In this document: piece by piece, positions 14,898 through 27,905 of the stretch
Layout: each line of letters starts with the position of its first letter
How positions within the stretch are numbered: position 1 is the stretch's first letter
NCBI GenBank assembly: GCA_041740115.1
Contig: JBGSMO010000487.1
Coordinates: 7,953 to 71,952 of the forward strand
Source of the DNA: Pirellulales bacterium
GTDB lineage: Bacteria; Planctomycetota; Planctomycetia; Pirellulales; Lacipirellulaceae
DNA: 64,000 nt
Direction: 5' to 3'
Made by a program: the position numbers and the translations under genes
The notes under the pieces: model-generated
What the model was told of the DNA's origin: nothing
Database searches by the model: none
The model's input: only the letters and a program-made list of their open reading frames with translations

Positions 14898-15049
14898 TTA
14901 GCCGTTGGCGGGTGTGCGGGCGAGGACCAGCACGGTGACGTCGGCGGCGCCGGCGCGGCGCAGGACGCGGGCGGCTTCGCTGCAGGTAGCGCCGGTCGTC
15001 AGAATATCATCGACGATCAGCACCCGGGCGGCCGCTAAATGATAGGACG
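14898..15049 (-). pseudogene. comF: comF 3' fragment (PRTase core), separated from its 5' part by the integrated element
   Basis: Manual translation SYHLAAARVLIVDDILTTGATCSEAARVLRRAGAADVTVLVLARTPANG*. VLIVDDILTTGAT is the PRPP-binding loop. An in-frame TAG lies 3 codons upstream inside the element, so the fragment has no start codon. Confidence 0.95.
15035..15049. repeat. Left attachment core (15-bp direct repeat)
   Basis: CTAAATGATAGGACG, identical to 27275-27289. Confidence 0.96.
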
Positions 15050-15093
15050 GGGAACGCTAAACGGTAGTGACTTTTGGAGGTTTTGGACCGGAC

Positions 15094-15112
15094 GCAACGC
15101 GCAAAGCAACGC
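15094..15112 (+). repeat. Putative integrase arm-type site (left)
   Basis: GCAACGCGCAAAGCAACGC, identical to 27138-27156; 45 bp inside the left core. Confidence 0.8.
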
Positions 15113-15251
15113 GCGCCGATTATCCGGCCGGTTTTGCTAAGATACGACACTGCTGGGCTCGGGGACTAATTACCCCCACAGGCCCCGGCCGTCAGCGGAC
15201 CACACCCCGCGGCGGCCGGGACCGGCTCGGCTCTTTGAAAGGTGTGGAAGC

Positions 15252-15875
15252 ATGGACGAATGGCAACCCCCGAAGTTGGGCGCAACGCTCCGAATGCTCG
15301 TCAAAATGCGAGTTCTCTGCCACCGGGAGTTTGATGCGCCGCCATACGCTGGATGCAGCATTTCCGAAGCAGAGTATGAGGCCGCCGGCAGTGACGGCTC
15401 AACCGAGGTCGGCTACGTCTCTTGGCGGACTCGCTGCGAGCGATACTATCGGATTCCGCGAGGGAAGTTCGATGACTTTGAGCGGTTGAGTTCGACGTTG
15501 TGGGGCATTAACAATGCGATATTGTCCATCAAGGCCGCCAAGTTATTGATTCAGCTTGGAGAGCCCGTAAGCGTCATCGCGACAGAGTGCGAGAGCATAG
15601 CGACTTCATGCTTCGTTGTTGGGTCGCAACTACGCCGGTACGCAGACGTTTCAACTCACCGCGAAAAGTCGACGCCCGTTCGCGTGTCGCAATTCGCAGA
15701 CATAGCGGTGGCCTCGAAAGCACGTGATGAAATCAAGCGGCAATTAAGATCGCGGTTGCCCTGGACTGCAGCAACGGACCGCGCCGCGACGACGCTTCGG
15801 AGCCATGGTATCCAAACAACTGGAAAAACCCTTAGGAACAACTTCGCCGACTTGAGGCCCGAAAAGGCGAAGTGA
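15252..15875 (+). CDS. Hypothetical protein (element)
   Basis: 207-aa ORF with no recognised motif; first gene of the element. Confidence 0.65.
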   Translation: MDEWQPPKLGATLRMLVKMRVLCHREFDAPPYAGCSISEAEYEAAGSDGSTEVGYVSWRTRCERYYRIPRGKFDDFERLSSTLWGINNAILSIKAAKLLIQLGEPVSVIATECESIATSCFVVGSQLRRYADVSTHREKSTPVRVSQFADIAVASKARDEIKRQLRSRLPWTAATDRAATTLRSHGIQTTGKTLRNNFADLRPEKAK

Positions 15876-16010
15876 AACGCGGAAACAACCCCGTAGCTTC
15901 CGAAAACTTGGCGGGAAATTACCCCGTCATTTCCGGGAATCATTGGTGACGCCCCTATCGTGATTGCAGTGCCGCACACAGCGGCAAGCACACGACAAAG
16001 GGAGCGACCA

Positions 16011-16214
16011 ATGGTAGCCGCAGCAAACTCACAGCAGCCTCTGCAAGTCAGCGAGCGTGAAGCCGCTCGCATTCTCGGCGTCTCACCGAAGACGCTCTTC
16101 AATCGTCGCCAAGCCGGCAAGATCGGCTTTGTTCGCGACGACGGCCGGATTCTCTACCGGCTCGACGAACTGCAGCGCTATTCCAAGGCCCGGGAAGTCC
16201 CGGCCGTTCTCTAA
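16011..16214 (+). CDS. Excisionase/AlpA-like winged-helix DNA-binding protein
   Basis: LQVSEREAARILGVSPKTLFNRRQAGKIGFVRDDGRILYRLDELQRY fits the Xis/MerR-like HTH pattern; SD AAAGGGAG before ATG 16011. Confidence 0.85.
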   Translation: MVAAANSQQPLQVSEREAARILGVSPKTLFNRRQAGKIGFVRDDGRILYRLDELQRYSKAREVPAVL

Positions 16215-16308
16215 CCCCCACCACCGCCTGGCTGTCCGCGCATTAAAACGCCCGGACGCACCGAGGGCTCAATTTCGGTGGCCGGGCAAAATCGAAAGGA
16301 CTATCCCC

Positions 16309-16554
16309 ATGATAGGGACCATTCAGCTGCAAACCAAGGCTTGCATGGTTTGCTTTCGTGCTGACTCCGTCGCCGGCAAAACTGTCAGCGGCAAGCAGGC
16401 TTGCTCTCAGTGTTGGAGGAACGACAGAGCTGCTGCAAAGCGTCGCGGCAAGATGCGGCCGGGCGTTTGTGCGACGGTCAACGCTTCACTGCCTTCGGTG
16501 AAGCATGTCGCCTCTCTCCCCGGTCAACTCGGCCTCTTCGGGGAGGGCGAGTAA
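16309..16554 (+). CDS. Small CxxC-CxxC (possible zinc-binding) protein
   Basis: SD GAAAGGA before ATG 16309; CMVC...CSQC; stop overlaps the next start (TAATG). Confidence 0.65.
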   Translation: MIGTIQLQTKACMVCFRADSVAGKTVSGKQACSQCWRNDRAAAKRRGKMRPGVCATVNASLPSVKHVASLPGQLGLFGEGE

Positions 16555-16934
16555 TGCAACACCAACCGCCCCCTGCCGTCCCAGTAATGCTCACCGGCCT
16601 ACTCCACGAGAACGGCCAACTCTTCACCGTGTTCGCCGCCGGCGACTCAGAGCGGATCATCGAAGCCGAGCTCTACGACATTCTGCCATTCGATAACTTC
16701 CGTCAGCACGTCCACGAGCGACTCGACTTGCGAGTCGTCTACCGACGCGGCCGTTGGTTCGCCGACGTGATTGAAGCCGCTGAGCGTGGCGGAATCGCAA
16801 TCGAGGTGGACGACCTCACCCGTTGCATCTGGTTGAACGATCGCCAGTTGAGTTACGCCGAAGCTGGATACGCTGCCGAGATTATGCTTTCGCCGGTTGT
16901 CCGTCTAGCCGGCAAGCTGGGGGTGGCCGGATGA
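16554..16934 (+). CDS. Hypothetical protein (element)
   Basis: 126 aa; translationally coupled on both sides (TAATG and ATGA overlaps). Confidence 0.7.
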   Translation: MQHQPPPAVPVMLTGLLHENGQLFTVFAAGDSERIIEAELYDILPFDNFRQHVHERLDLRVVYRRGRWFADVIEAAERGGIAIEVDDLTRCIWLNDRQLSYAEAGYAAEIMLSPVVRLAGKLGVAG

Positions 16935-18688
16935 TTGCAGCCCCGCATGGAATCGCGATTCTCGACGCCCTGGAAGGCGTGAAGTCGAACGGCCAAGACT
17001 CGTGGATGGCTCAATGCCCTTGCCACGAAGATTCAACCGCCTCGCTATCGATCACCCGCGAAGGCGACAAGACGCTCGTTTACTGCCATGCCGGTTGCGA
17101 CACTCGCGACGTGGTCGCCGCTTCTGGTTTGACGATGGCAGACCTGGGGCCGCGTAACGCCAACGGTTCAGCTCCGCACGTCGATAAGGTTTACGACTAC
17201 CGCGACGCTGACGGCTCGCTGATATCTCAAGTCGTGAAGATGCTGCCGAAGGATTTCCGCCAACGTCGGGCGGACGGCACGCCGAGCGTTAAGGGCTGCA
17301 AGGTCGTACCGTACCGGCTCCCTGAAATCGTCCGGGCTGATCCCGCGGCGCCCGTGTTCGTCGTCGAAGGCGAAAAGGATTGCGACAACCTGGCGAAGCT
17401 CGGCATCATCGCAACGTGCAACGCCGGCGGCGCTGGGAAGTGGCGGGCGGTTCACGCTGAGCACCTGAAGGGCCGGCACGTCGTCGTGCTTCCCGACAAC
17501 GATGATCCTGGCCGCAAGCACGCCGAGCAAGTTGCTGCGACGCTCGCGGGCATCGCCCGCAGCGTGAAGACGGTCGAGCTCCCCGGCTTGCCCGAAAAGG
17601 GGGACGTTTCGGATTGGCTCGCTGCAGGTGGGACCGCGGCGAAGCTACTGGAGTTGGCTGCGGAATCGTCCGACGAAGCTGCGGCGTTCCCTAAGTTCAC
17701 GCTCGGCGAACTGACTGAGAAGTTCCGCACGCTCAGCCCACCGGTGATTCACGGTTTCATCCGCGAGGGTGAGACTGCCAACTTCATAGCGAATCCGAAG
17801 ACCGGCAAGTCGTGGACGATGTACGGCTTGGCCATCAACGTCGTCACTGGGTCGGATTGGCTGGGATTGTTCCCAGTCTCTCAAGGTCGCGTGCTGCTGA
17901 TCGACAACGAACTTCACCCCGAGACGCTTGCTCACCGCATCCCGGCTGTTGGCAATGCTCTAGCTAGGCCGTTCGAGGACTATCGCGACGGCATCGACAC
18001 ATGGTGCCTTCGCGGCAATCTTCGCAGCCTGCAACAGTTGCTTGTCGAGTTCCGCAAGTCGGTCGAGCCGCGTCAGTACAAGCTGATCATCTTCGACGCC
18101 AAATATCGCTTCGCGGCCGAAGGCACGAGCGAGAACGACAACGCGGCGGAGACGGCTGTTTACAACCTACTCGACCAGATCGCGGCAGAGACGCGATCAG
18201 CCCTGATCGTCGTTCATCACGCGAGTAAGGGCGGCCAATCTGACAAACGCGTTACCGACGTTGGCGCGGGAGCCGGTGCTCAGAGCCGGGCGGCTGATTG
18301 CCACATGGTGCTGCGCGAGCATGAGGACGAGGGTATCGCCGTGCTCGACGCTGCGGTGCGATCGTTCCCGCCGGTGGCGCCAGTGGCTTTGCGTTGGTCA
18401 TTCCCGATCTGGATTCCCGACGAGTTCGCGGACGCTGCCAAGCTCAAGGGCAAGCAAACCCGCAATGAGGAACGGACGGCGGAGCGAGACAAAGAGGGCA
18501 TCGACAAGATCATCGCCGTGCTGATCACCGGGCCCGCGACAGCCAGCGTCATTAGGCAGGGGACCGGAATCAGCAAAGACCGGTGCGACCGCCTACTTAA
18601 CAAGCTCACTGCCGACGACCAGATCCGCGTGGAGATGGTGAAGGTGAAGGGCAATGAATGCCGCGAATACCACGTTGTCGATGGTTGA
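16931..18688 (+). CDS. Primase-helicase (Zn finger + TOPRIM + RepA/AAA_25-type helicase)
   Basis: CPCHED...CHAGC zinc site; VFVVEGEKD and VVVLPDNDDPG TOPRIM motifs; Walker A ANPKTGKS; Walker B LIIFD; C-terminal wHTH-like segment. Confidence 0.92.
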   Translation: MIAAPHGIAILDALEGVKSNGQDSWMAQCPCHEDSTASLSITREGDKTLVYCHAGCDTRDVVAASGLTMADLGPRNANGSAPHVDKVYDYRDADGSLISQVVKMLPKDFRQRRADGTPSVKGCKVVPYRLPEIVRADPAAPVFVVEGEKDCDNLAKLGIIATCNAGGAGKWRAVHAEHLKGRHVVVLPDNDDPGRKHAEQVAATLAGIARSVKTVELPGLPEKGDVSDWLAAGGTAAKLLELAAESSDEAAAFPKFTLGELTEKFRTLSPPVIHGFIREGETANFIANPKTGKSWTMYGLAINVVTGSDWLGLFPVSQGRVLLIDNELHPETLAHRIPAVGNALARPFEDYRDGIDTWCLRGNLRSLQQLLVEFRKSVEPRQYKLIIFDAKYRFAAEGTSENDNAAETAVYNLLDQIAAETRSALIVVHHASKGGQSDKRVTDVGAGAGAQSRAADCHMVLREHEDEGIAVLDAAVRSFPPVAPVALRWSFPIWIPDEFADAAKLKGKQTRNEERTAERDKEGIDKIIAVLITGPATASVIRQGTGISKDRCDRLLNKLTADDQIRVEMVKVKGNECREYHVVDG

Positions 18689-18830
18689 CCGACAACGTAC
18701 CCGACTACCCGACAACGGGCTGACGGGTGGGGTGGTGGCTCCCTAAAGGGGGAGCCGACAACCCTACCACGTCAGCCTACAGGAACGACAACGATGAATT
18801 CAACAATCGACAACGTACCCGACCGACAAC
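18674..18830. promoter_or_regulatory. Putative replication origin (iterons + hairpin)
   Basis: CGACAAC at 18690, 18710, 18756, 18786, 18808 and 18824, inverted at 18674; the 16-mer CGACAACGTACCCGAC twice; GGCTCCC/GGGAGCC hairpin at 18737-18756. Confidence 0.6.
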
Positions 18831-19009
18831 GCCAGACCACCATCATCTTCGACCAAACAGTCGCCGACCGCATCGAAAGCTTGCTGGCTCGCGTCGAAGG
18901 CGTCCGCCGCGGCGCCACGATCGACCGGCCAACCCGATTCAACCGCGAAGGCGAGCGCCACGCCCGTCGCGTAGCCCAAGCCGACCAATCCCGCGGGACT
19001 TCCCGCTAA
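18794..19009 (+). CDS. Hypothetical protein (element)
   Basis: 71-aa ORF with SD AGGA; its 5' end overlaps the iterons. Confidence 0.5.
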   Translation: MNSTIDNVPDRQRQTTIIFDQTVADRIESLLARVEGVRRGATIDRPTRFNREGERHARRVAQADQSRGTSR

Positions 19010-19034
19010 CCCCGTTTCCTGAAAGGAAAAACCG

Positions 19035-19475
19035 ATGGTAGTTTCCAACCACCCCGACCTCCGCGCCGCCATGTACGCCGCCCACATGGGCACTGGCGGA
19101 ACTCGCGACGAACTGCTCGCCCTAGCTCGACGTCACGGCCAGACGCCGGAGATCTTCGACGCCGACTACGCCGAGATGGGGCGCCGGATTGCGTTGCACA
19201 ACGCCTATTGGTCGTCGCCCGAAGGTTTGGCCATCCGCGACGCTCGGCAGAAGCTCGCTGAAGCCGCTCAGGCCGTCGACGCCGCTGTCGCAGAGTTCGC
19301 GAGCGACGCCCGGGTCGATCACCTGCGGAAGCTGCAGGCCGACGCCACGGCGGAAGTGAACAAGCTGCAGAATGCCAACAGCGAGCAGTTCCAAGCGTTC
19401 TCCAAGGCGATGAAGGCCACGGCCCACCCGGGCGACGCCAACTATCTCGACCCGGCCAACGTGCTCATTCACTAA
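19035..19475 (+). CDS. Hypothetical helical protein (element)
   Basis: 146 aa; strong SD GAAAGGAAA; phage-like codon style. Confidence 0.75.
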   Translation: MVVSNHPDLRAAMYAAHMGTGGTRDELLALARRHGQTPEIFDADYAEMGRRIALHNAYWSSPEGLAIRDARQKLAEAAQAVDAAVAEFASDARVDHLRKLQADATAEVNKLQNANSEQFQAFSKAMKATAHPGDANYLDPANVLIH

Positions 19476-19494
19476 TTCGATGAAAGGAAACACA

Positions 19495-20100
19495 ATGCAA
19501 ATCGTAAAAACCCCGCCGCTCCCGGCGCCCAAGGTTATCCAGCGGCCGTCAGACCGGATCTCAGCCGCCGACCGAGAAGAGATCTACGGCATCATCTGCC
19601 CGGCCGTCGAAGCCGGTAAGCCGCTCACGAAGTCGGAAACGGCCCGCGTCAACGCGATCGTCTCCGGCAAGCCCGTCGGCGTCTTCGTGGCGGAGGCTCA
19701 TCGGTTCGCCCGTGCCGTCGCCGCTGGCGAGGACGTCGCAAACTCGTCGCCCGATCTGCTCCGACTGCTGCAGGATGGACCGGCCGCCGCCCTGATGAAC
19801 GCCGCGACCGCCCGCAAGGCTCTGGCCGACGCGTTCGAGAAGACCGGCTACTTCAAGCGGGTGGCTGAGTTGAAAGAAGCGTGCCGGACTGCACTCGAAG
19901 CCTTCCAGGTCGCCGAGGCGGATGAAGATACCAGCATGCGGAAGATTCGGCGGCTTCAATTGGAGCACGAGCAATCGATTCAGCGGCTCAGTGACTTCTC
20001 GAACACCGCGAACGCCGAATTCACGCTGTTCCGCCGCGAGATGAAGAAGACCGCCGATCTCTCCAAGAACGAACTGCTCTGGCAGAACTTCCTGATTTAA
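19495..20100 (+). CDS. Hypothetical coiled-coil protein (element)
   Basis: 201 aa from ATG 19495 after TGAAAGGAAACAC. Confidence 0.75.
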   Translation: MQIVKTPPLPAPKVIQRPSDRISAADREEIYGIICPAVEAGKPLTKSETARVNAIVSGKPVGVFVAEAHRFARAVAAGEDVANSSPDLLRLLQDGPAAALMNAATARKALADAFEKTGYFKRVAELKEACRTALEAFQVAEADEDTSMRKIRRLQLEHEQSIQRLSDFSNTANAEFTLFRREMKKTADLSKNELLWQNFLI

Positions 20101-20109
20101 GGAGCGACC

Positions 20110-20448
20110 GTGGCAGCCTACGTTCTCAACCCGAAGCATCCCAATTATCGATTTGTACGCACGGTGACGATCGCCGGCCGTCAACCTCGCATCGTCATTT
20201 TCAAAGATGGCGCCGAGGTGGAACTCGACCCAAAGGAGGTGCGATTCCTCGCGGAAGAGATTGCCGCCAATTGGATCGGACTGGCCGGAGTCAAGTTTCC
20301 CAAACCGGAGAAGCCCATTCCCGCGCGGCTGGACCCATCCGAACTGGAAGACCGAGACCCTGAGACGTTTGAATTTGTTCGACCTGAAGACCGACCCCGT
20401 TGGTGGCAAGAGCGGCGTGCAATTTTCCGCGCCGTCAACGGTCGCTGA
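20110..20448 (+). CDS. Hypothetical protein (element)
   Basis: 112 aa; SD TAAGGAG before GTG. Confidence 0.7.
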   Translation: MAAYVLNPKHPNYRFVRTVTIAGRQPRIVIFKDGAEVELDPKEVRFLAEEIAANWIGLAGVKFPKPEKPIPARLDPSELEDRDPETFEFVRPEDRPRWWQERRAIFRAVNGR

Positions 20449-20474
20449 CCCTTTTACCCCTGAAGGAGTTTCCC

Positions 20475-20891
20475 ATGTCCCACTTTGACGATTTCGATGA
20501 CGACGACGACGACTACGAGATCGAGGCTAGTTCCAACCTTCGCCAATTTAGCAGCGGCACCTTGGCAGGCCGACTGGTCGAGAAGATCACGGCACTTCAG
20601 CAGGAGCAGCCGCTTACCCGTGCATTTACAACCCGACCAAGTCACAGGGCTATGCAAACCCAAACCCCTAAGCGGAGCGCCGAGCATCCGATCGTCACGA
20701 AGTATAAGGCCAATCACGGCAGCTATGCCGTCGCAGGCGTCACGCTGTGCGAATTCGCGTTGGACCACTTCGTCAATGACGACGACGCCGGAGAGCCCAG
20801 CGCCGCCCTGATCGCTGAGATTGAAGCTGAGAGCGCAGTTCTTCAGGCGGCTTGGATGAACGGTGAGATCACCAACCCATTTGATGCGTAA
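20475..20891 (+). CDS. Hypothetical acidic protein (element)
   Basis: 138 aa from ATG 20475 after GAAGGAG; begins with a poly-Asp tract (MSHFDDFDDDDDDY). Confidence 0.7.
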   Translation: MSHFDDFDDDDDDYEIEASSNLRQFSSGTLAGRLVEKITALQQEQPLTRAFTTRPSHRAMQTQTPKRSAEHPIVTKYKANHGSYAVAGVTLCEFALDHFVNDDDAGEPSAALIAEIEAESAVLQAAWMNGEITNPFDA

Positions 20892-21088
20892 GCGAGAGCC
20901 GGGCGACAAGCGGGGCCTTAATCCTGAATTTGCACCCCGTGGCCGAGTCGATCGTTGCGGTTCTCTTGACCGCAGCGTGTGTAACAAAGCCCGTCGCCTG
21001 TCCAGTCGGCTACCAGTCGCCCCCTTCGTTCCTTGTGTGGAAGCGGGGCGGCTGGGGCTGATTGATGGCAAAGGCCACCCCGCCGGTG

Positions 21089-21124
21089 GGGTCCTTCCGG
21101 CCTTCGTCAGACCACCCTCGGGTG
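21089..21124 (+). promoter_or_regulatory. Putative cos-like packaging site
   Basis: GGGTCCTTCCGG (21089-21100; lambda cosQ is GGGTCCT, followed by TTCCGG), then the 12-bp dyad CACCC-TC-GGGTG (21113-21124), about 75-100 bp upstream of the Nu1-like gene. Confidence 0.45.
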
Positions 21125-21196
21125 AAGCATCGAACGCCTTTTACACGTCAGGAGTTGAGAGTTGACCCCTAATAATAGCACCCTGGAGGCCCGCAA

Positions 21197-21685
21197 ATGG
21201 CCGCTGTAGCCCTCGAACCCCAGACTCTGAGCAAACACATCTGCGCCGATCTCCGCGATATGGGGCATTGGACGCGCGCCGTGCCGGAGATGTTCCGGGG
21301 CCTGATCGCGATGCATCGGGAAGGCGGCGAAACCGTCGTGAAGACGCTACCGGAAGTTGCCGCCGCGTTCAACATGGCTCCGCAGTCAGTCAAAGGCGAC
21401 TGGCGTGATGGCGGCATGCCTGGCCGTCCTGGGCGCTGGGATCTCGCCGAGATTTTGTGTTGGCGAATCGAGCGTGACGGGCGTGCTCGCGGGGCGACGG
21501 TCGATACGACGCCCGTTGAATCGCTGGTCGACAAGGCTTTGGAGCTACTCAGCGAGCAATACGGAATCACGCACGTCATCGCCGGCGGCGAGCGTCTCGC
21601 CCAAGCATGGGCCGACACGTTGGCCGAGGCGGAAGCGGGAGAGAAGAAACGGGCCCCTAGTGCTCGGAAGCGAATCACCAACTAG
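21197..21685 (+). CDS. Terminase small subunit (lambda Nu1-like) DNA-binding protein
   Basis: PEVAAAFNMAPQSVKGDWRDGGMP...WDLAEILCWRIERD aligns by eye with Nu1 KQLADIFGASIRTIQNWQEQGMP...YDSAAVIKWYAERD. Confidence 0.65.
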   Translation: MAAVALEPQTLSKHICADLRDMGHWTRAVPEMFRGLIAMHREGGETVVKTLPEVAAAFNMAPQSVKGDWRDGGMPGRPGRWDLAEILCWRIERDGRARGATVDTTPVESLVDKALELLSEQYGITHVIAGGERLAQAWADTLAEAEAGEKKRAPSARKRITN

Positions 21686-21710
21686 CCCGACGGGCTGAAA
21701 GGAAACACGA

Positions 21711-23267
21711 ATGAGCGCGAAGTTTGAAATCGGCGGTTCAGCCAGCGGCGCCGTCAAGGCGGTTGAGGAACTCAACAAAGCGTTGAACAAGACCGGCAAA
21801 GAAGCCGAGGGCGCGATCACGCCGACTAAGAAGGTGCAAGAGGCCGCGGCCCGATTGGCCCAACAAGCCGATCCGCAAGAGAAGTACAACGAACGGATGC
21901 GAAAGCTGGTCGAAGCAGTCAAGGGCGGGGGCCTGGAAATCTCCAAGGCGGAAGTGTTGGCCAAACGCTACGGCACGGCGCTTGATAAAGCCGGCGACTC
22001 CGGCGACAACGCGTTCGGTTCCGGGATGCTCGGCAAGATCATGGCGATGGGCGGCGGCATCACGGCGACGCTCGGTCCGCTCGCCCTGATGAAAAAAGGG
22101 TTCGACGATATCTCCGACTCGATCGAGAAAGCCAAGAACGCCAGCGCGGAAGCTCGCCGCGGCATGGGCTCACTTCGACAGTTGGCCAACTCCGACGCCG
22201 AGTTCCAGGGATTGAAGAGTAAGGCGGAAGCTTTGTTCGCCAATGGCTCAGTGCAGACGCTCGACCAGGGAGCGCAAGCCGTCTTCTCGTTGGCGTCTGC
22301 CGGTCAGCTCGACGACAAGAGTTTCAGCATGTTCGCGGGCCTGGCTCAAAAGGGCGTCGTCGATCCGGGGATGTTAGCCAAAGCAGTTCGCCAGTACCAA
22401 TCGGGGTTCGGCGCCGCCGAGACGGGCGGGGCTGGGCAGATCATCTCCAAGGCGTTCGCGGCGTCGGCCTACTCACCGGCGTCGGTCGAAGGGTTGCTCG
22501 GCGCCAGCCCGCAGATGGCGGCAGCCGCGTCGTCGTTGGGGATCAGCGACGAAGAATCGCTCGCGTCGCTGGCGGTGTTGTCGTCGAGCGTCGGGGAGAA
22601 CGTCGCGGCGACTCAGATTCGTGCGTTCCTTAGTTCGACGGCGAACATGGAGGGGACCGAGGGCATGAGCATTGCCGAGCGCGTGAAGATGGTCGCCGGC
22701 AAGAACCTGGATTACGCCAGCCTGAAGAAAACTCTGGGGACCGATGAAGCGACGACGGGCTTCGGCCTGCTGTCCAAGAATATGCAGGAGATTCAACGGG
22801 CGAATCTGGATATTCAAAAGGCGAATTCAGACACAGGCGCGGTAAGTCGTCGCCTGGGTTTCACCGACGCCGAGTCCGATGCAGCCCTGTCGTCGATGAT
22901 GATCGAGAACCAAGGCATTCTCCAAGACCGTCGCGTGGCGGCTTATGAGGAGTTGCGCGACGGCATCTTCGAACGGCAGCGGCAAGGGTTCCGCGAAAGC
23001 GCCAAGAACGGACTCCCGCAGCGATTGAACGCGTCGTTCGACCTGGGGCTAAGCCATACCCAAGAGTTCCTCAACGGCTACCTGATGAGTCCCGAGACGT
23101 TCGTCAACGTCAACGAGTCAGCGGTCGGCAGCGGCGGGATGAGCGACCAGCAACAGGCCGTTCTCGAATCGCTGAATCGTTCGGCAAAGGCGGCTGAGCA
23201 GACGGCGGAAGAGATCAAGCGGCTCTCCGGTCAAAACCGCAGCAAGGTCACGACGAGGCAAGAATGA
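21711..23267 (+). CDS. Phage tail tape-measure-like protein (518 aa)
   Basis: Ala/Gly/Ser-rich helical protein with the TMP-type core ASSLGISDEESLASLAVLSS...AATQIRAFL, an N-terminal PQEKYNERMRKL segment and a C-terminal coiled coil. Confidence 0.72.
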   Translation: MSAKFEIGGSASGAVKAVEELNKALNKTGKEAEGAITPTKKVQEAAARLAQQADPQEKYNERMRKLVEAVKGGGLEISKAEVLAKRYGTALDKAGDSGDNAFGSGMLGKIMAMGGGITATLGPLALMKKGFDDISDSIEKAKNASAEARRGMGSLRQLANSDAEFQGLKSKAEALFANGSVQTLDQGAQAVFSLASAGQLDDKSFSMFAGLAQKGVVDPGMLAKAVRQYQSGFGAAETGGAGQIISKAFAASAYSPASVEGLLGASPQMAAAASSLGISDEESLASLAVLSSSVGENVAATQIRAFLSSTANMEGTEGMSIAERVKMVAGKNLDYASLKKTLGTDEATTGFGLLSKNMQEIQRANLDIQKANSDTGAVSRRLGFTDAESDAALSSMMIENQGILQDRRVAAYEELRDGIFERQRQGFRESAKNGLPQRLNASFDLGLSHTQEFLNGYLMSPETFVNVNESAVGSGGMSDQQQAVLESLNRSAKAAEQTAEEIKRLSGQNRSKVTTRQE

Positions 23268-23584
23268 GCACCATCAGCGCCGACGCACGCTATGCCGAAC
23301 TGCTCACGCACGTCGACTTTCCCGACTGGTGGATTTTCGTCGTCGGCGCCACGCACGTCATCGAACGATGGCACGGCGTCAGCCTGCCGGTAACGACCGT
23401 CGGGCTGATCGAAGTAAAGAAGCAAGGCGTCGACTTCAAGGAACCGAAGTGGGCGTTGCTGCTCTGGGAACTTGGCGCGGAGGCGGACTTCATTGAGAGG
23501 CTACAGCGTGCAACCGCCGAACTGGGAACCGACCGAAGCGGAGATAGCGGCACAGTGTGCGGAGATCCGCCGCGGGTGGAGTGA
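23264..23584 (+). CDS. Hypothetical protein (element)
   Basis: 106 aa; ATGA overlap with the tape-measure-like gene. Confidence 0.55.
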   Translation: MSTISADARYAELLTHVDFPDWWIFVVGATHVIERWHGVSLPVTTVGLIEVKKQGVDFKEPKWALLLWELGAEADFIERLQRATAELGTDRSGDSGTVCGDPPRVE

Positions 23585-23672
23585 GGCGGAGCTGCGGCGG
23601 CGCTCGGCGTGGATGGTCTGCGAGCCGGTGACGGCGCCGGTGGCCGAAGAATCGCTCTTTGATAACTCGTGA
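23508..23672 (+). CDS. Small protein with a PTEAEIAAQCAEIRRGW motif
   Basis: GTG at 23508 with SD GAGAGG; 54 aa; overlaps the end of the previous ORF in another frame. Confidence 0.5.
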   Translation: MQPPNWEPTEAEIAAQCAEIRRGWSEAELRRRSAWMVCEPVTAPVAEESLFDNS

Positions 23673-23786
23673 AGATAAAACCGCCTCCGCACGCGCCGCG
23701 TCGTGCGTTGCGAGGGGCGGGCGTGACCATCGAGCCGCGTTTCGCTGCGATGCGTGAGGCGGGCGCTGAGGGGCTGAGAAGCGAGA

Positions 23787-23816
23787 TTGACAAAACGGGC
23801 GGCTGCGGAGCAAAAT
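23787..23816 (+). promoter_or_regulatory. Sigma-70-like promoter
   Basis: TTGACA-N18-CAAAAT upstream of the 24051/24443 gene pair. Confidence 0.5.
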
Positions 23817-23832
23817 AGCGGCGTCAAAGCAC

Positions 23833-23862
23833 GAACCTTCGGAAGTTAATTTCCGAAGGTTC
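23833..23862. repeat. Perfect 12-6-12 inverted repeat (operator or lox/dif-like recombination site)
   Basis: GAACCTTCGGAA-GTTAAT-TTCCGAAGGTTC. Confidence 0.85.
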
Positions 23863-24050
23863 AATCGCGGGCCTGAGAATCCGCGATACACGCAGTGAGT
23901 TATGTCGAATGGTGAGAAACAAGAACGATCGGCAGAGAGGGTGCGCAGGAAGGCAACGACCTGCGGGCGGTCTCACCCGCCTGACAGCGCCACCTCTGCC
24001 GGTCGTTTTTCTTAGCCCGTGCCGTTCTGGCCGGGCGGAAGGATTCTCCC

Positions 24051-24446
24051 ATGGCCCTCGCACTCTACGCGGGCGACGACCTAGAAGTCTGTCACGACAC
24101 GCGGACTTGGCTGCGGCAAGGTAAATCAGCCATCGAAGGCGGCTATCTAATCGAAGGCGCCGCGTTGCTCCAAAGAGCGGTTCGCGAGTTCCTGCAAGCC
24201 GACTGCGACTACTGGGGCGTTCCCCGGCATCGCACGCTGATCGGCATGGCGAAGTCACTTTATCGAGCCGAGCAGGTCACGCCCGATTCTTATGCGGTAC
24301 TGTCCGGCATCATCTCGACGTGCAACCGCGTCGTGCGTTGCGAGCCGAGGCGTTGCGAAGATGAAAGCCACTTGAAGGCATGCCTGCTAGCCATGCACTC
24401 ATTCTGCGACGGGACCGCCTATCTCGACGAAAGGAGCCAAGCATGA
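24051..24446 (+). CDS. Hypothetical helical protein, possibly HEPN/DUF4145-like
   Basis: 131 aa; GAALLQRAVREFL...TLIGMAKSLYRAEQVT...VLSGIISTCNRVVRC resembles the HEPN helical layout but lacks Rx4-6H; coupled to the recombinase by an ATGA overlap. Confidence 0.55.
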   Translation: MALALYAGDDLEVCHDTRTWLRQGKSAIEGGYLIEGAALLQRAVREFLQADCDYWGVPRHRTLIGMAKSLYRAEQVTPDSYAVLSGIISTCNRVVRCEPRRCEDESHLKACLLAMHSFCDGTAYLDERSQA

Positions 24447-25639
24447 GCACGACCGACAACAAGGCCGACTGGCCCCTACTCCGCATCGTCAACGAGATCA
24501 TGAAGCCGACCGGGCGATGGAAGCCGGCGGTCATTCGCGGTTATCGAGTTGTAGTACGACGCTACGAACGGTTCCGCGGCGGCGAGCAGACGGCCGGCGA
24601 AGTGACCGTCCGTCTGCTGGAGAAGTTCAAGGAACTGATGATTGCCGAGGGCGTTAAGACAAAGGCCGCGGCGACGAAGGCGAGCTACATCGGAACCATC
24701 GTCCGCCAAGCCGACCCCGATCTGTTGCCGAAGCGCAACCTTGGCGAGTACAGCAAGGCCGAGCAAGGCGACCTGCTCTACATCATGGAAAACGAATACT
24801 TCCCGGCGAAGTCGAAGATTGCGAGCGAGACGACGGAGCGGCAGTACAAGTACACGGCGACCCGTTTCTCGAAATTCTTGGGGCGTCGCGCGACGCTCGC
24901 CGACTTAACGGACCAAAGCCTCGGTAAATGGATGCGACAAATGCGAAAGGATGGTTTAGCGATGCCAACGATCAACGGCTACGTCACGAAGCTACGGGCG
25001 TTTTGGAACTGGTGTGCGAAGAAGCGGATGGTCGAAGAGTTCCCGACGATCGAAGATTTCCCCGAGCCGATGACGATTCCCAAGGCGTATAGCGAGGAAG
25101 AGTTTCGGTCCCTGATCGCCGCTACAAAGCTCATGGAAGGTCACGTGGGCGACGTGCCGGCCGGGCAATGGTGGTATGCGTTGCATCTGGTGGCGTTCGA
25201 CACGGGGGAGCGATGTTCGGCGCTGTTGCATCTTGAGTGGACCCACTACGACGCGGGAGACGCGACGCTCGCCGCTCCGGCTGAGATCCGCAAAGGGGGA
25301 CGCAAGCCGATGCTCTATCGCCTGAAGCCGGCGACCGTCGCCACGTTGGCGACCATGCGAGCGACGGCCAGCGGCAAGAAGATATTCTTCTGGGCGCATG
25401 ACGCAACGACGTTCTACAACCACTACAAAAAGCTGCTGGAGTTGGCGGGGCTGCCCTACGTTCCGCACAAGAGCGGGCTGCAAAAGGTGCGTCGGACGTT
25501 CGCCAGCCATATCGAAGCGGCTGGCGGCAACTCGACGCAGGCCCTTAGTCACACGTCGCGGCGAGTGACCGAGAAGTCGTACATCGATCCAAGAATCGCC
25601 AAGGAACCGCCGCACAACGACGTGCTGTTCGACCTGTAG
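24443..25639 (+). CDS. Tyrosine recombinase 1
   Basis: Catalytic motifs FDTGERCSAL (R), KGGRK, LQKVRRT (Q at the HxxR His position), LSHT...TEKSY (H, Y). Confidence 0.92.
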   Translation: MSTTDNKADWPLLRIVNEIMKPTGRWKPAVIRGYRVVVRRYERFRGGEQTAGEVTVRLLEKFKELMIAEGVKTKAAATKASYIGTIVRQADPDLLPKRNLGEYSKAEQGDLLYIMENEYFPAKSKIASETTERQYKYTATRFSKFLGRRATLADLTDQSLGKWMRQMRKDGLAMPTINGYVTKLRAFWNWCAKKRMVEEFPTIEDFPEPMTIPKAYSEEEFRSLIAATKLMEGHVGDVPAGQWWYALHLVAFDTGERCSALLHLEWTHYDAGDATLAAPAEIRKGGRKPMLYRLKPATVATLATMRATASGKKIFFWAHDATTFYNHYKKLLELAGLPYVPHKSGLQKVRRTFASHIEAAGGNSTQALSHTSRRVTEKSYIDPRIAKEPPHNDVLFDL

Positions 25640-26000
25640 CCCCACCGCCGCGGGCAGGCGGCGGTTTTCAAGAAGATCCGGGCGGGCCAAGTTGCTGAGG
25701 GTCGACACAACAACGCCTTGGCGCCGCCCGGAAGCGACCAATGGAGTATTGTTTTGGCCCTGCGCCGTGCCTGAAAAATCTGGCGCGATTGCGCCACGAT
25801 GCCGGTTGCTTGCCGGTGTGAGCGCGGATTGTATGAAAAGCCGTGACGGCGACCCCGCTGGCTAGCAAATCAGCGAAGGCCGCCGCCACAGACCGTTTGA
25901 TCGTTAATAGGCGGCGAGCCCTGGAACGAGTTCCCCAGAGCCCGCCGCCGACAGGAGCTAACCAGCAACTCTACCACCTTTTTTGAGCATTGGAGAAAAA

Positions 26001-27224
26001 ATGGCATCGTTATCAACTTACCAAGACGGCAAGAAAAAAGGCCGGCATCGCGTCCTGTTCACCGACCCCACCGGCAAGCGGCAGACGATCTACCTTGATC
26101 GCATTCCCAAGAAAACGGCCGAGGGCGTTCAACGCGCCATCACCGAGCTTGAGCGATCGGCCCGCTACGGTCACTCGGCGGCAGACTTCGCGTTGGCATG
26201 GCTATCGACCGCCGGCGATGAGATCCGCGAACGACTGACGAAGTTCGGGCTCGCGTCGGCTCGCATGGTCGAAGCGCCCGAGGCGGTAACTCTCGGCACG
26301 CTGGTCGACCTGTACCAGCTTCGCCCCGAGTGGCAGCAGCTGAAGCCCAAGACGATCAAGAACAAGTTGCGCCACTTCAAGCTGGCCCTGGCGTTCTACG
26401 GCGCCGACAAGCCGGTCGAGTCGATCACCAAGGCCGACGCCAAGGCGTTCTACGCGATGCTGCAGCTTCCCGAGGCCAAGGGAGGGCACGACTTCGCCGT
26501 CGCCACGGCCAACCAGACGGCCTCGACGCTGTTCGCTCTGGTCAGCTTCGCCATCGACGCCGAGCTGGTCGACCGGAACGTGTTCAAGGTTCTGCCGCGG
26601 AAGGCCCGAAAGGGGAACAACGTAAACGTCAGCGAGGCTGTCAGCCTTGCAGTGCTCGATTCGCTGCAGACCACCGAGGACAAGCTGCTGTTCGCCCTGG
26701 GGCGCTGGGGCGGGCTACGGATGCCCTCTGAGGGGACGCAGCTACGCTGGCAGGACGTTGATTGGGAAAGGGAGCGTTTCTACACTCGCAGCCCTAAGAC
26801 CGAGCGCCACGAGGGCAGGGAAGGGCGTTGGGTGCCGATCTACCCGCCGTTGGCGCCGCTGTTCCGCGAGATGTTCGAGAAAGCCGCCGACGGCGCCGTC
26901 TACGTTCTCCCGAACTATTGTCATGCGATCTACTCCAAGCCGACGCAGACGCTCAAACAAGCGATCAAGCACGCGGGCGTCGAGCCATGGCCAAGAGCGT
27001 GGCACAGTTGCCGAGCGACGCGGCAGACGGAACTGGCGGCCGATTTTCCGGCTCATGTCGTCGCGAGTTGGATGGGAAACACCGTCGCGGTCGCCGACGC
27101 TCACTACCTGATGGTGCGTGAACTCGACTTTGCAAAAGCAACGCGCAAAGCAACGCAGCACACGCCCGCAACGACGGATAACGAGAAGAAAACGGCTGGC
27201 GTGAACCCTGCAAATCCTCGATAA
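26001..27224 (+). CDS. Tyrosine recombinase 2, likely the integrase for the comF site
   Basis: N-terminal arm-binding-like region (GRHRVLFTDPTGKRQTIYL); RWGGLRMPSE (R), SPKTE (K), WHSCRAT (HxxR), WMGNT...AHY (Y); ends 50 bp from the right att core. Confidence 0.94.
   Translation: MASLSTYQDGKKKGRHRVLFTDPTGKRQTIYLDRIPKKTAEGVQRAITELERSARYGHSAADFALAWLSTAGDEIRERLTKFGLASARMVEAPEAVTLGTLVDLYQLRPEWQQLKPKTIKNKLRHFKLALAFYGADKPVESITKADAKAFYAMLQLPEAKGGHDFAVATANQTASTLFALVSFAIDAELVDRNVFKVLPRKARKGNNVNVSEAVSLAVLDSLQTTEDKLLFALGRWGGLRMPSEGTQLRWQDVDWERERFYTRSPKTERHEGREGRWVPIYPPLAPLFREMFEKAADGAVYVLPNYCHAIYSKPTQTLKQAIKHAGVEPWPRAWHSCRATRQTELAADFPAHVVASWMGNTVAVADAHYLMVRELDFAKATRKATQHTPATTDNEKKTAGVNPANPR
27138..27156 (+). 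repeat. Putative integrase arm-type site (right), inside the integrase CDS
   Basis: GCAACGCGCAAAGCAACGC, identical to 15094-15112; translated as part of KATRKATQ. Confidence 0.8.
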
Positions 27225-27263
27225 TTGCAGGCTGTTGCAGGTGGTTGCCGTTCTATTCCGGAC

Positions 27264-27905
27264 CTAAAGAGCGTCTAAATGATAGGACGCACCTACAGCC
27301 ATTTCTCCCGCCAAATTGCGAAATCGCGCGGGGCGTGATAACCCGACCTGGGGCGGCACATCCCGCACAAGCCGCAGCATCTCGCCCGCGCAGGGGACGT
27401 TCAGCTTTTCGGCGAGGCGGCGAGCGATCAGTTGCGGTGCATTCGCGCCTCGTTGCCATCGGCGCCACCGGTGCATCGGGACGGCGGTGACGACGTCGAT
27501 CTGTAACTCCAGTAGCTGGTTGCTGAGCCGCTGCCATGCCAGTTCGGCGAGCGCGTGCGTCACGACCCCTTGGCGATCGGCCTTCGTGCGCATCACGAGT
27601 TGCCGTAACAGCCCTTCGTAGCTGCCGAGCGCGATCGCCCGCTGGAAGCGAAGCTTGTCGCCGCGGCAGTGGTTGCAGGCGAGGTCGACGCCATTCGTCG
27701 AGGGGACCGGCGCAGCGCAGCGGGGGCAGACTGGCCAGTCGATGAATTCGAGGCGCTCTTCACACTCTCGGCAGATGGGTGACTCGCGCTGCTCTTCGCC
27801 GAGGTCGCCGTGGCAGGCGATGCATTTGGCGGGGAAGAGGAGATCGAGGCCGGCGCCTACGGCGTGTCGCCACCATCGAGTTCGTTGAGTTGGCGGTGTT
27901 GGCAT
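27264..27905 (-). pseudogene. comF: comF 5' fragment (double zinc ribbon + N-part of PRTase), truncated by the element
   Basis: LDLLFPAKCIAC...CREC...CPRC...CNHC, TAVPMHRWRRWQRGAN and QVGLSRPARFRNL; ends ASYHL+DAL* at the att core and lacks the DD..TTGAT motif found at 14898-15035. Confidence 0.95.
27275..27289. repeat. Right attachment core (15-bp direct repeat)
   Basis: CTAAATGATAGGACG, identical to 15035-15049. Confidence 0.96.

Follow-up and report, generated by a model that had tools for sequence, protein, structure and literature searches.

What do four adjacent genes without recognisable relatives do in a small integrated element of a planctomycete? The question is raised by a 64,000-nt stretch of Pirellulales bacterium contig JBGSMO010000487.1 (the whole stretch is called the window; GC content ~62%), in which an island of ~12.25 kb carries four consecutive open reading frames, ORF1 to ORF4. 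All four are genuine and conserved, and they represent three protein families not described before. Their place in the island, and the company kept by a domain of ORF4 in related elements, lead us tentatively to prefer the reading that they form a capsid-assembly or hijack module of a new family of satellite-like elements.

Four genes, three protein families

The four genes follow one another on one strand (lengths in amino acids, aa):

19035-19475, + strand: ORF1, 146 aa
19495-20100, + strand: ORF2, 201 aa; the longest mechanical ORF starts at 19480
20110-20448, + strand: ORF3, 112 aa, basic, GTG start
20475-20891, + strand: ORF4, 138 aa, acidic, isoelectric point (pI) 4.5

An AGGA or GGAG motif stands 7-10 nt 5' of every start, the gaps between successive genes are 19, 9 and 26 nt, and the gene calls of public assemblies are exactly the ORF1-4 products. 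GC content at third codon positions (GC3) is 0.82, 0.80, 0.60 and 0.68 from ORF1 to ORF4, compared with 0.77-0.86 in host genes, and the distribution of GC over codon positions is of coding type. A first-pass annotation, made by a model from the letters alone, had described four ORFs of these lengths with strong Shine-Dalgarno sites, and the coordinates, motifs and public calls agree with it. It had also called them unrecognisable, which our searches bear out: no significant match to any of the four was found in Pfam, PHROGs, NCBIfam, PADLOC, 50,697 phage genomes or PDB sequences, and concatenated ORF1-4 had no tblastn match in the same phage genomes. Sub-threshold library matches of these genes and their neighbours (ERp29, GREB1_C, prephenate dehydrogenase, LmuB coiled coil) were dismissed as noise. 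Every protein of the block is a singleton cluster at 90% identity among ~15 billion proteins.

The same gene order is found again in about nine rare metagenomic contigs, to which relatives of ORF2 and a relative of ORF4 led. An exhaustive HMMER search of 1.84 billion cluster representatives, run for ORF2 only, returned six relatives and no more (27-38% identity, 183-216 aa), all of them carried by elements. ORF2, ORF3 and ORF4 are adjacent in the related loci L082, L084, L085, L087/88, L092, L093 and L094, and L089/90 has ORF2 and ORF4 only. Identity to the window proteins is 61% for ORF1, 28-37% for ORF2, 46-57% for ORF3 and 25-37% for ORF4. The ratio of nonsynonymous to synonymous substitution rates (dN/dS) in the sister clade is 0.13-0.46 for ORF2-4 (0.14-0.36 for ORF2 and 0.24-0.46 for ORF3), and in the window's own copies the proportion of nonsynonymous differences (pN) is below that of synonymous ones (pS), with 0.27 versus 0.55 for ORF1. 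Thus no known non-phage family claims these genes, they have syntenic homologues, and pN is below pS, all in keeping with the first-pass annotation.

Gene order is best seen in four of the related loci (TerS, small terminase subunit; HTH, helix-turn-helix; TMP, tape measure protein):

L087/88: ORF1, ORF2, ORF3, ORF4, 511-aa gene, 88-aa gene
L082: DnaB-like helicase, HTH, three small genes, ORF2, ORF3, ORF4, TerS-like, 81 aa, 515 aa, 141 aa
L092: HTH, primase-AAA_25, 94 aa, 43 aa, ORF3, ORF2, 272 aa, TerS-like
L093: integrase and other upstream genes, ORF3, ORF2, 260 aa, TerS-like, 236 aa, start of a TMP-like gene

The replication modules beside ORF2-4 differ among relatives (primase-AAA_25, DnaB-like, and a DUF3102 context), and TerS-like and/or TMP-like genes follow the ORF2-4 module. 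Because the trio is constant with packaging-type genes and not with replication modules, it is linked to the packaging side and not to the replicon. ORF1-4 lead a conserved operon-like module that consists of a small basic protein, ORF1-4, a structured RNA, a TerS-like gene, a tape-measure-like gene and a 106-aa gene. A metagenome scan added one further locus, which holds only the 518-aa (tape-measure-like) gene and its downstream neighbour. In L092 (12066-14330, - strand) the TerS-like gene is followed by two opposite-strand orphans of 579 and 128 aa, not by a tape-measure-like gene; the pair may mark where the element ends, or else a slot for cargo or defence genes.

Two of the four genes are related to each other. 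ORF1 residues 49-145 align with positions 105-201 of the ORF2 family, extreme C-terminal motif included (hhalign probability 94%, E 1.3e-7; BLASTP 3e-4). The ORF1 family was found only in the window and in L087/L088, where the orthologue is 61% identical, and with so restricted a distribution ORF1 looks like a clade-specific partial duplicate of ORF2. The count of four in the first-pass annotation therefore holds for genes; the families number three, as ORF1 and ORF2 are paralogous.

The ORF2 family ends in a conserved C-terminal motif, N..D.E..FR.AMK.T......W..F.I. (alignment A1). From a seven-sequence alignment, AlphaFold predicts an all-helical ORF2 protein with three long helices and a short C-terminal tail, at a predicted local distance difference test score (pLDDT) of 84.4 and a predicted template modelling score (pTM) of 0.72. 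Foldseek searches of PDB and BFVD with this model returned nothing better than E 0.4, with template modelling scores (TM-scores) of at most 0.35. The fold may be new, or else too generic to place. Matches to 14-3-3 proteins, BAR domains and tape measures (E >=0.4) are of a generic helical kind and were dismissed, and a sequence match to adenovirus protein IX in the ORF2 search (1.4e-3) most likely reflects Ala-rich composition. The structural comparison that the first-pass annotation had proposed accordingly gave, for ORF2, a confident model and no fold match in PDB or BFVD. Its description of the proteins as mostly helical holds for three of the four: for ORF2 by the model, for ORF1 by paralogy and for the C-terminal domain of ORF4 at moderate confidence.

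ORF3 consists of a conserved N-terminal domain of ~75 aa and a variable tail rich in Pro and charged residues. Homologues 46-57% identical are present in L082-L085, L087/88 and L092-L094, each beside ORF2. No match to ORF3 was found in the family libraries or in PDB.

ORF4 and a protease-like fusion

Perhaps the most informative of the four is ORF4. Its conserved part is the C-terminal ~75 residues, about 64-138 (alignments A3 and A5), within homologues that are 25-37% identical. In the sister clade the corresponding protein is a fusion of 258-272 aa (plus one 206-aa member), in which the ORF4-type C-terminal domain follows an extra N-terminal domain of ~175 residues. ORF4 residues ~64-138 match the fusion C-domain by tblastn at 1e-7 to 2e-4, and this domain is helical in the AlphaFold model of the fusion, at pLDDT 60-76.

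The fusion N-domain is homologous to the N-terminal 150 aa of a protein of Bacteroidales phages (hhalign 96%, E 1.5e-9; tblastn down to 2e-4). This protein occurs in >130 phages, where it is annotated throughout as 'hypothetical'. In the Bacteroides phage BT2 (L098) its gene lies directly upstream of a gene annotated as XkdG / major capsid protein, and in the Parabacteroides phage PM708P2 (L095) it lies upstream of a 'head and packaging' structural protein. The slot directly 5' of the major capsid gene is the canonical place of a scaffold or prohead-protease gene, and the 'hypothetical' gene is probably the unannotated protease or scaffold gene of those phages.

Model comparisons point the same way. 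When the fusion model was compared with BFVD using Foldseek, 14 of the top 50 matches were named prohead protease or COG3740 head maturation protease, and the same 50 included one prohead core scaffold protein and two capsid fragments (E from 9e-4 upward). An invariant G-x-S and a D-L-V-G-x-P-A motif are common to the fusions and the Bacteroidales proteins; by eye, and without statistical support, they resemble the HK97 gp4 Ser motif and 'S-x-V-x-x-P-A-N'. We consider it moderately likely that the fusion N-domain is prohead-protease-like.

ORF4 itself has no protease-like N-domain; it would be the C-terminal domain alone. Because that C-domain is fused in relatives to a domain of phage head-module type, at least one of the four ORFs is tied to head assembly. 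The suggestion that ORF4 is scaffold-like, made at first on account of its poly-Asp N-terminus MSHFDDFDDDDDDYEIE, thus gains indirect backing from a different quarter: in sister elements the conserved C-domain extends a protease-like protein at its C-terminus. The poly-Asp tract itself is present in the window copy and absent from all homologues, so the original reason falls away, and the companion idea that the tract marks a nucleic-acid mimic has no comparative backing.

A structured RNA, packaging-side genes and the island

Between ORF4 and the next gene the window has a gap that is itself conserved:

20892-21196: non-coding gap of 305 bp between ORF4 and the 162-aa gene
20898-21065, + strand: structured non-coding RNA, with a 5' three-way junction (20898-21005) and a long hairpin to ~21065

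Further conserved blocks and a hairpin with a U-run extend to ~21150, upstream of the TerS-like gene, and the three-way junction carries conserved GAGUCGAU and AACAAAG loops. Exact blocks of 12-16 nt recur from locus to locus in the interval from ORF4 to the following gene, although the flanking proteins are only 30-50% identical. A seven-sequence alignment of the RNA contains 39 pairs, 18 of them with compensatory changes. Pairing is kept in 91.8% of cells, compared with 27-47% when partners are slid, and none of 500 shuffles reached the observed values on any measure. The minimum free energy fold of the single sequence agrees with the alignment fold (z = -2.4), and the many G-U pairs argue for transcription of the + strand. 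A covariance model (R1) matches all nine module-bearing loci at 78-110 bits and none of the 80 primase-only loci. The element is present in the window, L084, L087/88, L089/90, L092, L093 and L094, with its 3' half only in L082, and it lies 3' of ORF4 in every complete relative.

Neither in the window nor in seven relatives did any Rfam family match the RNA at E<=1; the sole weak Rfam match, sR43 in L093 (E 0.043), lies outside the element. Twenty-four stretches of IMG/VR sequence that fitted the RNA pattern were rejected, as they are about the number expected by chance, score at most 13 bits with the model and resemble coding sequence. From its position, the RNA may act in cis as a gate on read-through into the packaging genes. 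As a covarying RNA it is a candidate new motif, and it may be the most novel single feature of the region.

The genes that follow the RNA make up the packaging side of the module:

21197-21685, + strand: TerS-like protein, 162 aa, with a homologous HTH domain and a short, diverged C-terminal part
21711-23267, + strand: tape-measure-like protein, 518 aa, with orthologues of 511-517 aa in L082, L087/88 and L091
23264-23584, + strand: conserved 106-aa protein, overlapping the stop of the 518-aa gene, with a 65% identical orthologue at the same position in L087/L088

In L082, L092 and L093 the TerS-like proteins match phrog_57 (terminase small subunit) along almost the entire length of that PHROG, at 2.6e-11, 1.2e-13 and 1.7e-12. 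The window's 162-aa protein has a phrog_57 match of its own at 0.008, and over residues 43-99 it aligns with the sister TerS-like family at an hhalign probability of 97% (E 5e-11). The family of 511-518 aa has three independent sub-threshold tape-measure matches, from three family members: PF10145 PhageMin_Tail at 4.5e-4 (20.6 bits, with a cut-off of 33.2), TMP_N PF24164 at 3.6e-3 and phrog_1272 tape measure at 5.6e-5. No tail module surrounds the 518-aa gene, and tblastn of its product against the 50,697 phage genomes gave no match.

The remaining features of the island and its ends are as follows:

15036-15050: attL (left attachment site), a 15-bp direct repeat CTAAATGATAGGACG at the left island end, read from the sequence
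15960-16214, + strand: HTH_17 DNA-binding protein of AlpA/excisionase type, 84 aa (PF12728 9.9e-8; phrog_66 'excisionase and transcriptional regulator' 3e-8)
16401-16934: small ORF
16928-18688, + strand: primase-helicase fusion with CHC2 zinc finger, Toprim, AAA_25 and a C-terminal winged-helix tail
18673-18831: iteron-like cluster, six exact copies of CGACAACG within 160 bp; candidate origin or operator
18794-19009, + strand: basic protein, 71 aa, pI 11.4, the operon's first gene, called as a gene in public assemblies
24051-24446: 131-aa protein
24443-25639, + strand: first integrase, of tyrosine-recombinase type, 398 aa (faint Pfam matches to Phage_int_SAM_5 and SAM_4)
25983-27224, + strand: second integrase, 413 aa (PF00589, weak)
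27264-27905, - strand: truncated 213-aa N-terminal part of a comF-like gene, right of attR
27275-27289: attR (right attachment site), the second CTAAATGATAGGACG copy, adjoining the N-terminal part of the split comF-like gene, read from the sequence

Read directly from the window, the island spans 15036-27289, ~12.25 kb between the 15-bp att repeats. Left of attL (14900-15050, - strand) a C-terminal remnant of the comF-like gene, of phosphoribosyltransferase (PRTase) type, was identified by eye. With pieces of the comF-like gene on both sides, the island appears to be inserted within it, and the host comF-like gene would be interrupted by the island. No tRNA was found within the 64-kb window. 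An exact 19-nt direct repeat, GCAACGCGCAAAGCAACGC, occurs at 15094-15112 and 27138-27156, ~45-120 bp inward of each att repeat; the right copy falls in the 3' end of the second integrase gene, and the repeats are candidate arm-type binding sites of the integrase. A further exact 19-nt repeat, CCGCGTCGTGCGTTGCGAG, is present twice within the island (23696-23714 and 24326-24344).

Only one public metagenome run (X1) holds the sequence, and its assembled contigs were examined. Two contigs cover the island at ~19x word depth with zero differences inside it (window 14989-27663), and the window's own chromosomal flanks have a word depth of 1-4x in the same run. The 19x contig has 26 substitutions across ~300 bp right of attR, a divergence of ~9% from the window flank. 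An identical island beside a ~9%-diverged flank at 19x indicates that the same site is occupied in a more abundant, diverged strain. A recent spread of the element would account for this, as would a chimeric source contig. The assembled contigs of the run show no excision joint. Two island stretches (23705-23764 and 25911-25948) recur in two other contigs of ~20x depth from the same metagenome.

On the replication side, the primase-helicase matches AAA_25 (8e-29) and Toprim_2 (2.4e-4) in Pfam and phrog_239 DNA primase/helicase (4.6e-37), and has 326 relatives in reference genome contigs, many of them from Planctomycetota. CGACAACG occurs 16 times in the 64-kb window against 5.2 +/- 2.4 expected; an inverted repeat (I6) also lies within the cluster region, and the word does not cluster in related loci. 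With six copies 5' of ORF1-4 and the TerS-like HTH gene 3' of them, the placement of the four between an origin and a packaging module, as first described, holds. The 71-aa gene ends 25 nt before ORF1 and has a 53% identical homologue at the same position in L084; by eye its product looks ribbon-helix-helix-like and may be a small regulator. A scan of the island for sigma-70 and terminator consensus sequences did no better than on shuffles.

The first integrase has weak tblastn matches to integrases of related loci. Homologues of the second, 31-39% identical, lie 0.7-1.7 kb 3' of the primase in L002, L004, L010, L013, L016, L019, L024, L034 and L079. Related Planctomycetota islands, including that of Blastopirellula marina DSM 3645, have only a homologue of the second integrase, directly after the primase; the window island has two integrases in tandem. 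Neither ORF1-4 nor the 162-, 518- and 106-aa genes were found in any of 80 related primase-island loci, so ORF1, the first integrase and all that lies between them behave as an added module. This block looks like a ~7-kb addition to a minimal HTH-primase-integrase island. Capsid, portal, large terminase and lysis genes were not detected by Pfam, PHROGs or NCBIfam in the island, nor in the related contigs so searched; some of the orphan proteins may still be structural.

Readings of the module and known satellites

The island combines features of phage-inducible chromosomal islands (PICIs): it is bounded by att repeats, falls in the 10-15 kb range and carries an integrase, an AlpA/excisionase-type regulator, its own primase and an iteron cluster. 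We infer that it is a phage-satellite-like element. The TerS-like gene 3' of ORF1-4, the tie of ORF4 to a head domain and a layout of PICI/P4 type together favour a capsid-assembly or hijack module over the alternatives weighed below.

Several known systems offer parallels. In Staphylococcus aureus pathogenicity islands (SaPIs), cpmA, cpmB and pti of operon I precede terS, and the proteins CpmB and Rcm work by mimicking the scaffold of the helper (PMC12409344). Like SaPI/PICI elements with their operon I, the window has an att-flanked island in the 12-15 kb range with integrase, AlpA/HTH regulator, primase/replicase and origin, and small, largely helical proteins directly 5' of a small-terminase gene. 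The kinship of ORF4 with a scaffold-type region also recalls that of CpmB and Rcm with the scaffold of the helper (PMC12409344). The window proteins have no sequence or fold similarity to Cpm, Pti or Rcm (the products of cpmA, cpmB, rcm and ptiA/B/M), however, and the window differs further in its integrases, which are placed at the far end and point the same way, in having a tape-measure-like gene and a structured RNA, and in its Planctomycetota-type host.

The satellite phage P4, comparable in size to the ~12-kb island, encodes the alpha primase-helicase, an integrase (int), the external scaffold Sid, Psu and Delta. The island resembles it as an integrative replicon with a fused zinc-finger/Toprim primase and helicase, and in having helical proteins about as large as Sid and Psu (150-250 aa). 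It has a TerS-like gene, unlike P4, and does not rely on cos alone. No homologues of Sid, Psu or Delta were found; ORF1-4 had no Pfam or PHROG match, and ORF2 had no PDB fold match at E <0.4.

For ORF4 the parallels extend to phages proper. The C-terminal part of P2 gpO is a scaffold or capsid-binding region, and in lambda C/Nu3 and Mu I/Z a nested C-terminal product has that role. The sister protein of 258-272 aa, with its protease-like N-domain and helical C-domain, is built like P2 gpO, PBSX XkdF, lambda C/Nu3 and Mu I/Z, and ORF4 corresponds to the C-terminal part alone, as Nu3 does to C and gpZ to I. The fusion has no significant sequence match to P2 gpO or HK97 gp4, and the sister elements carry no capsid gene beside it. 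Satellites that carry their own head-morphogenesis genes, including a prohead serine protease, have been described as capsid-forming PICIs (cfPICIs; PMC10085698). These have a complete head set (capsid, portal and connectors), none of which was detected in the window island.

If the module does act in capsid assembly, ORF1-4 would redirect or exploit that of a helper phage. ORF4 may be a scaffold-like, non-proteolytic factor that binds procapsids or is taken into them. ORF1 and ORF2, as elongated helical paralogues with the same C-terminal motif, may bind one common partner, plausibly a capsid, scaffold or TerS-like protein, and ORF3 could be a small basic adaptor. The structured RNA and the hairpin with its U-run between ORF4 and the TerS-like gene might gate read-through into the packaging genes. 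Hijack of a helper's capsid assembly by ORF1-4 is plausible, if unproven. The fully specified version, a new satellite family of Planctomycetota-type hosts that combines a protease-scaffold-derived ORF4 domain, ORF1/ORF2 partners, an ORF3 adaptor, its own short tape measure and an RNA read-through switch, is doubtful as a whole.

A number of observations weigh against assigning the module to capsid assembly. The element has no known helper phage, capsid protein or virus particle, and for ORF1, ORF2 and ORF3 position is the sole evidence of function. The confident ORF2 model resembles no known scaffold, Sid, Psu or other structure in PDB or BFVD. Between the window's TerS-like protein and its better-supported relatives, homology is limited to the HTH domain, and the satellites described so far do not feature a tape-measure-like gene. 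The fusion model has a mean pLDDT of 48 and Foldseek TM-scores of only 0.2-0.4; the fusion family has no Pfam, PHROG or PDB-sequence match, even with all members searched against Pfam and a widened profile against PDB; and comparisons with HK97 gp4 and P2 gpO, by hhalign and by hidden Markov model (HMM) against shuffles, were not significant or not collinear. Scans of IMG/VR viral contigs with the ORF3, 518-aa and fusion families found no relatives, and the 50,697 phage genomes hold no tblastn match to ORF1-4 or the 518-aa protein. The first-pass annotation had assigned ORF1-4 to the slot that in satellites holds capsid-size redirection genes; the layout between iterons and TerS-like gene agrees with that, and the lack of a known capsid target or helper tells against it.

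The alternative that survives best, which we still regard as unlikely, is that ORF1-4 are accessory replication, partition or regulatory factors (origin-binding helpers, or regulators of copy number or transcription) of an integrative plasmid-like element, with no role in virions. They do lie directly 3' of a primase-helicase, an iteron cluster and a small basic possible regulator; ORF3 is basic, ORF1-3 have no structural-protein signature, and TerS-like HTH proteins can be mere DNA binders. The ORF2-3-4 trio travels, however, with three replication modules, always with TerS-like and/or TMP-like genes, and is missing from the 80 related primase islands. The fusion of the ORF4 domain to a homologue of a domain from a phage head-module gene also speaks for the capsid-assembly module instead.

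It is improbable that the island is an autonomous tiny temperate virus of a new kind, with ORF1-4 and the 518-aa protein as its own virion proteins. Orphan status throughout the module would suit such a virus, as would the spread of the element between strains, and TMP-like and (in sister elements) protease-like genes are virion-assembly functions, satellites being normally without a tape measure. There is, however, no candidate for a capsid fold, a portal or a packaging ATPase: ORF2 consists of helices only, and the known capsid folds need more residues than ORF1, ORF3 or ORF4 can offer. To have a small terminase but no large one is the signature of helper dependence, and the IMG/VR scans turned up no relatives.

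We give still less credence to ORF1-4 as cargo, whether anti-phage defence, helper-interference toxins or anti-defence, with the poly-Asp ORF4 as a nucleic-acid mimic. Cargo of this sort varies between relatives at hotspots, whereas ORF1-4 are a conserved core. Defence genes are common in satellites, and ORF4 has a highly acidic N-terminus, yet no homologue has the poly-Asp tract. ORF1 has a weak PADLOC match to the LmuB coiled coil (6.4e-4, 16 bits); it lies in a coiled-coil region, and no PADLOC match is significant. As for a role in helper interference, which had been proposed at the outset, nothing was found that shows interference.

Finally, chance open frames in GC-rich DNA can be dismissed: antisense ORFs of 136, 282 and 205 aa do overlap ORF1-4, a usual by-product at 62% GC, but the conservation data refute this explanation, with 28-62% protein identity in the annotated frames despite saturated synonymous sites and dN/dS <0.5, along with the ribosome sites and the confident ORF2 fold.

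The locus is best described as one of a known kind, the phage-satellite-like islands, and its new parts are three families without an annotated member and a candidate RNA motif. Should the module prove unrelated to virions, the finding would be one of rare conserved orphan genes on a mobile element. The satellite families compared here (SaPI/PICI, P4 and cfPICI) come from Proteobacteria and Firmicutes, and the window would represent a new host lineage; the SatelliteFinder survey and that of marine integrative mobile elements encapsidated in virions (VEIMEs) make no mention of Planctomycetes or of tape-measure genes. If the satellite reading is true, three new families join the short list of candidate capsid-redirection factors. 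The ORF4 domain, free in the window and fused to a protease-like domain in relatives, offers a starting point for mechanism, and the covarying RNA that separates ORF4 from the TerS-like gene may prove to be a new cis-regulatory RNA. The tape-measure-like gene raises the question of whether a satellite can itself set tail length or DNA delivery.

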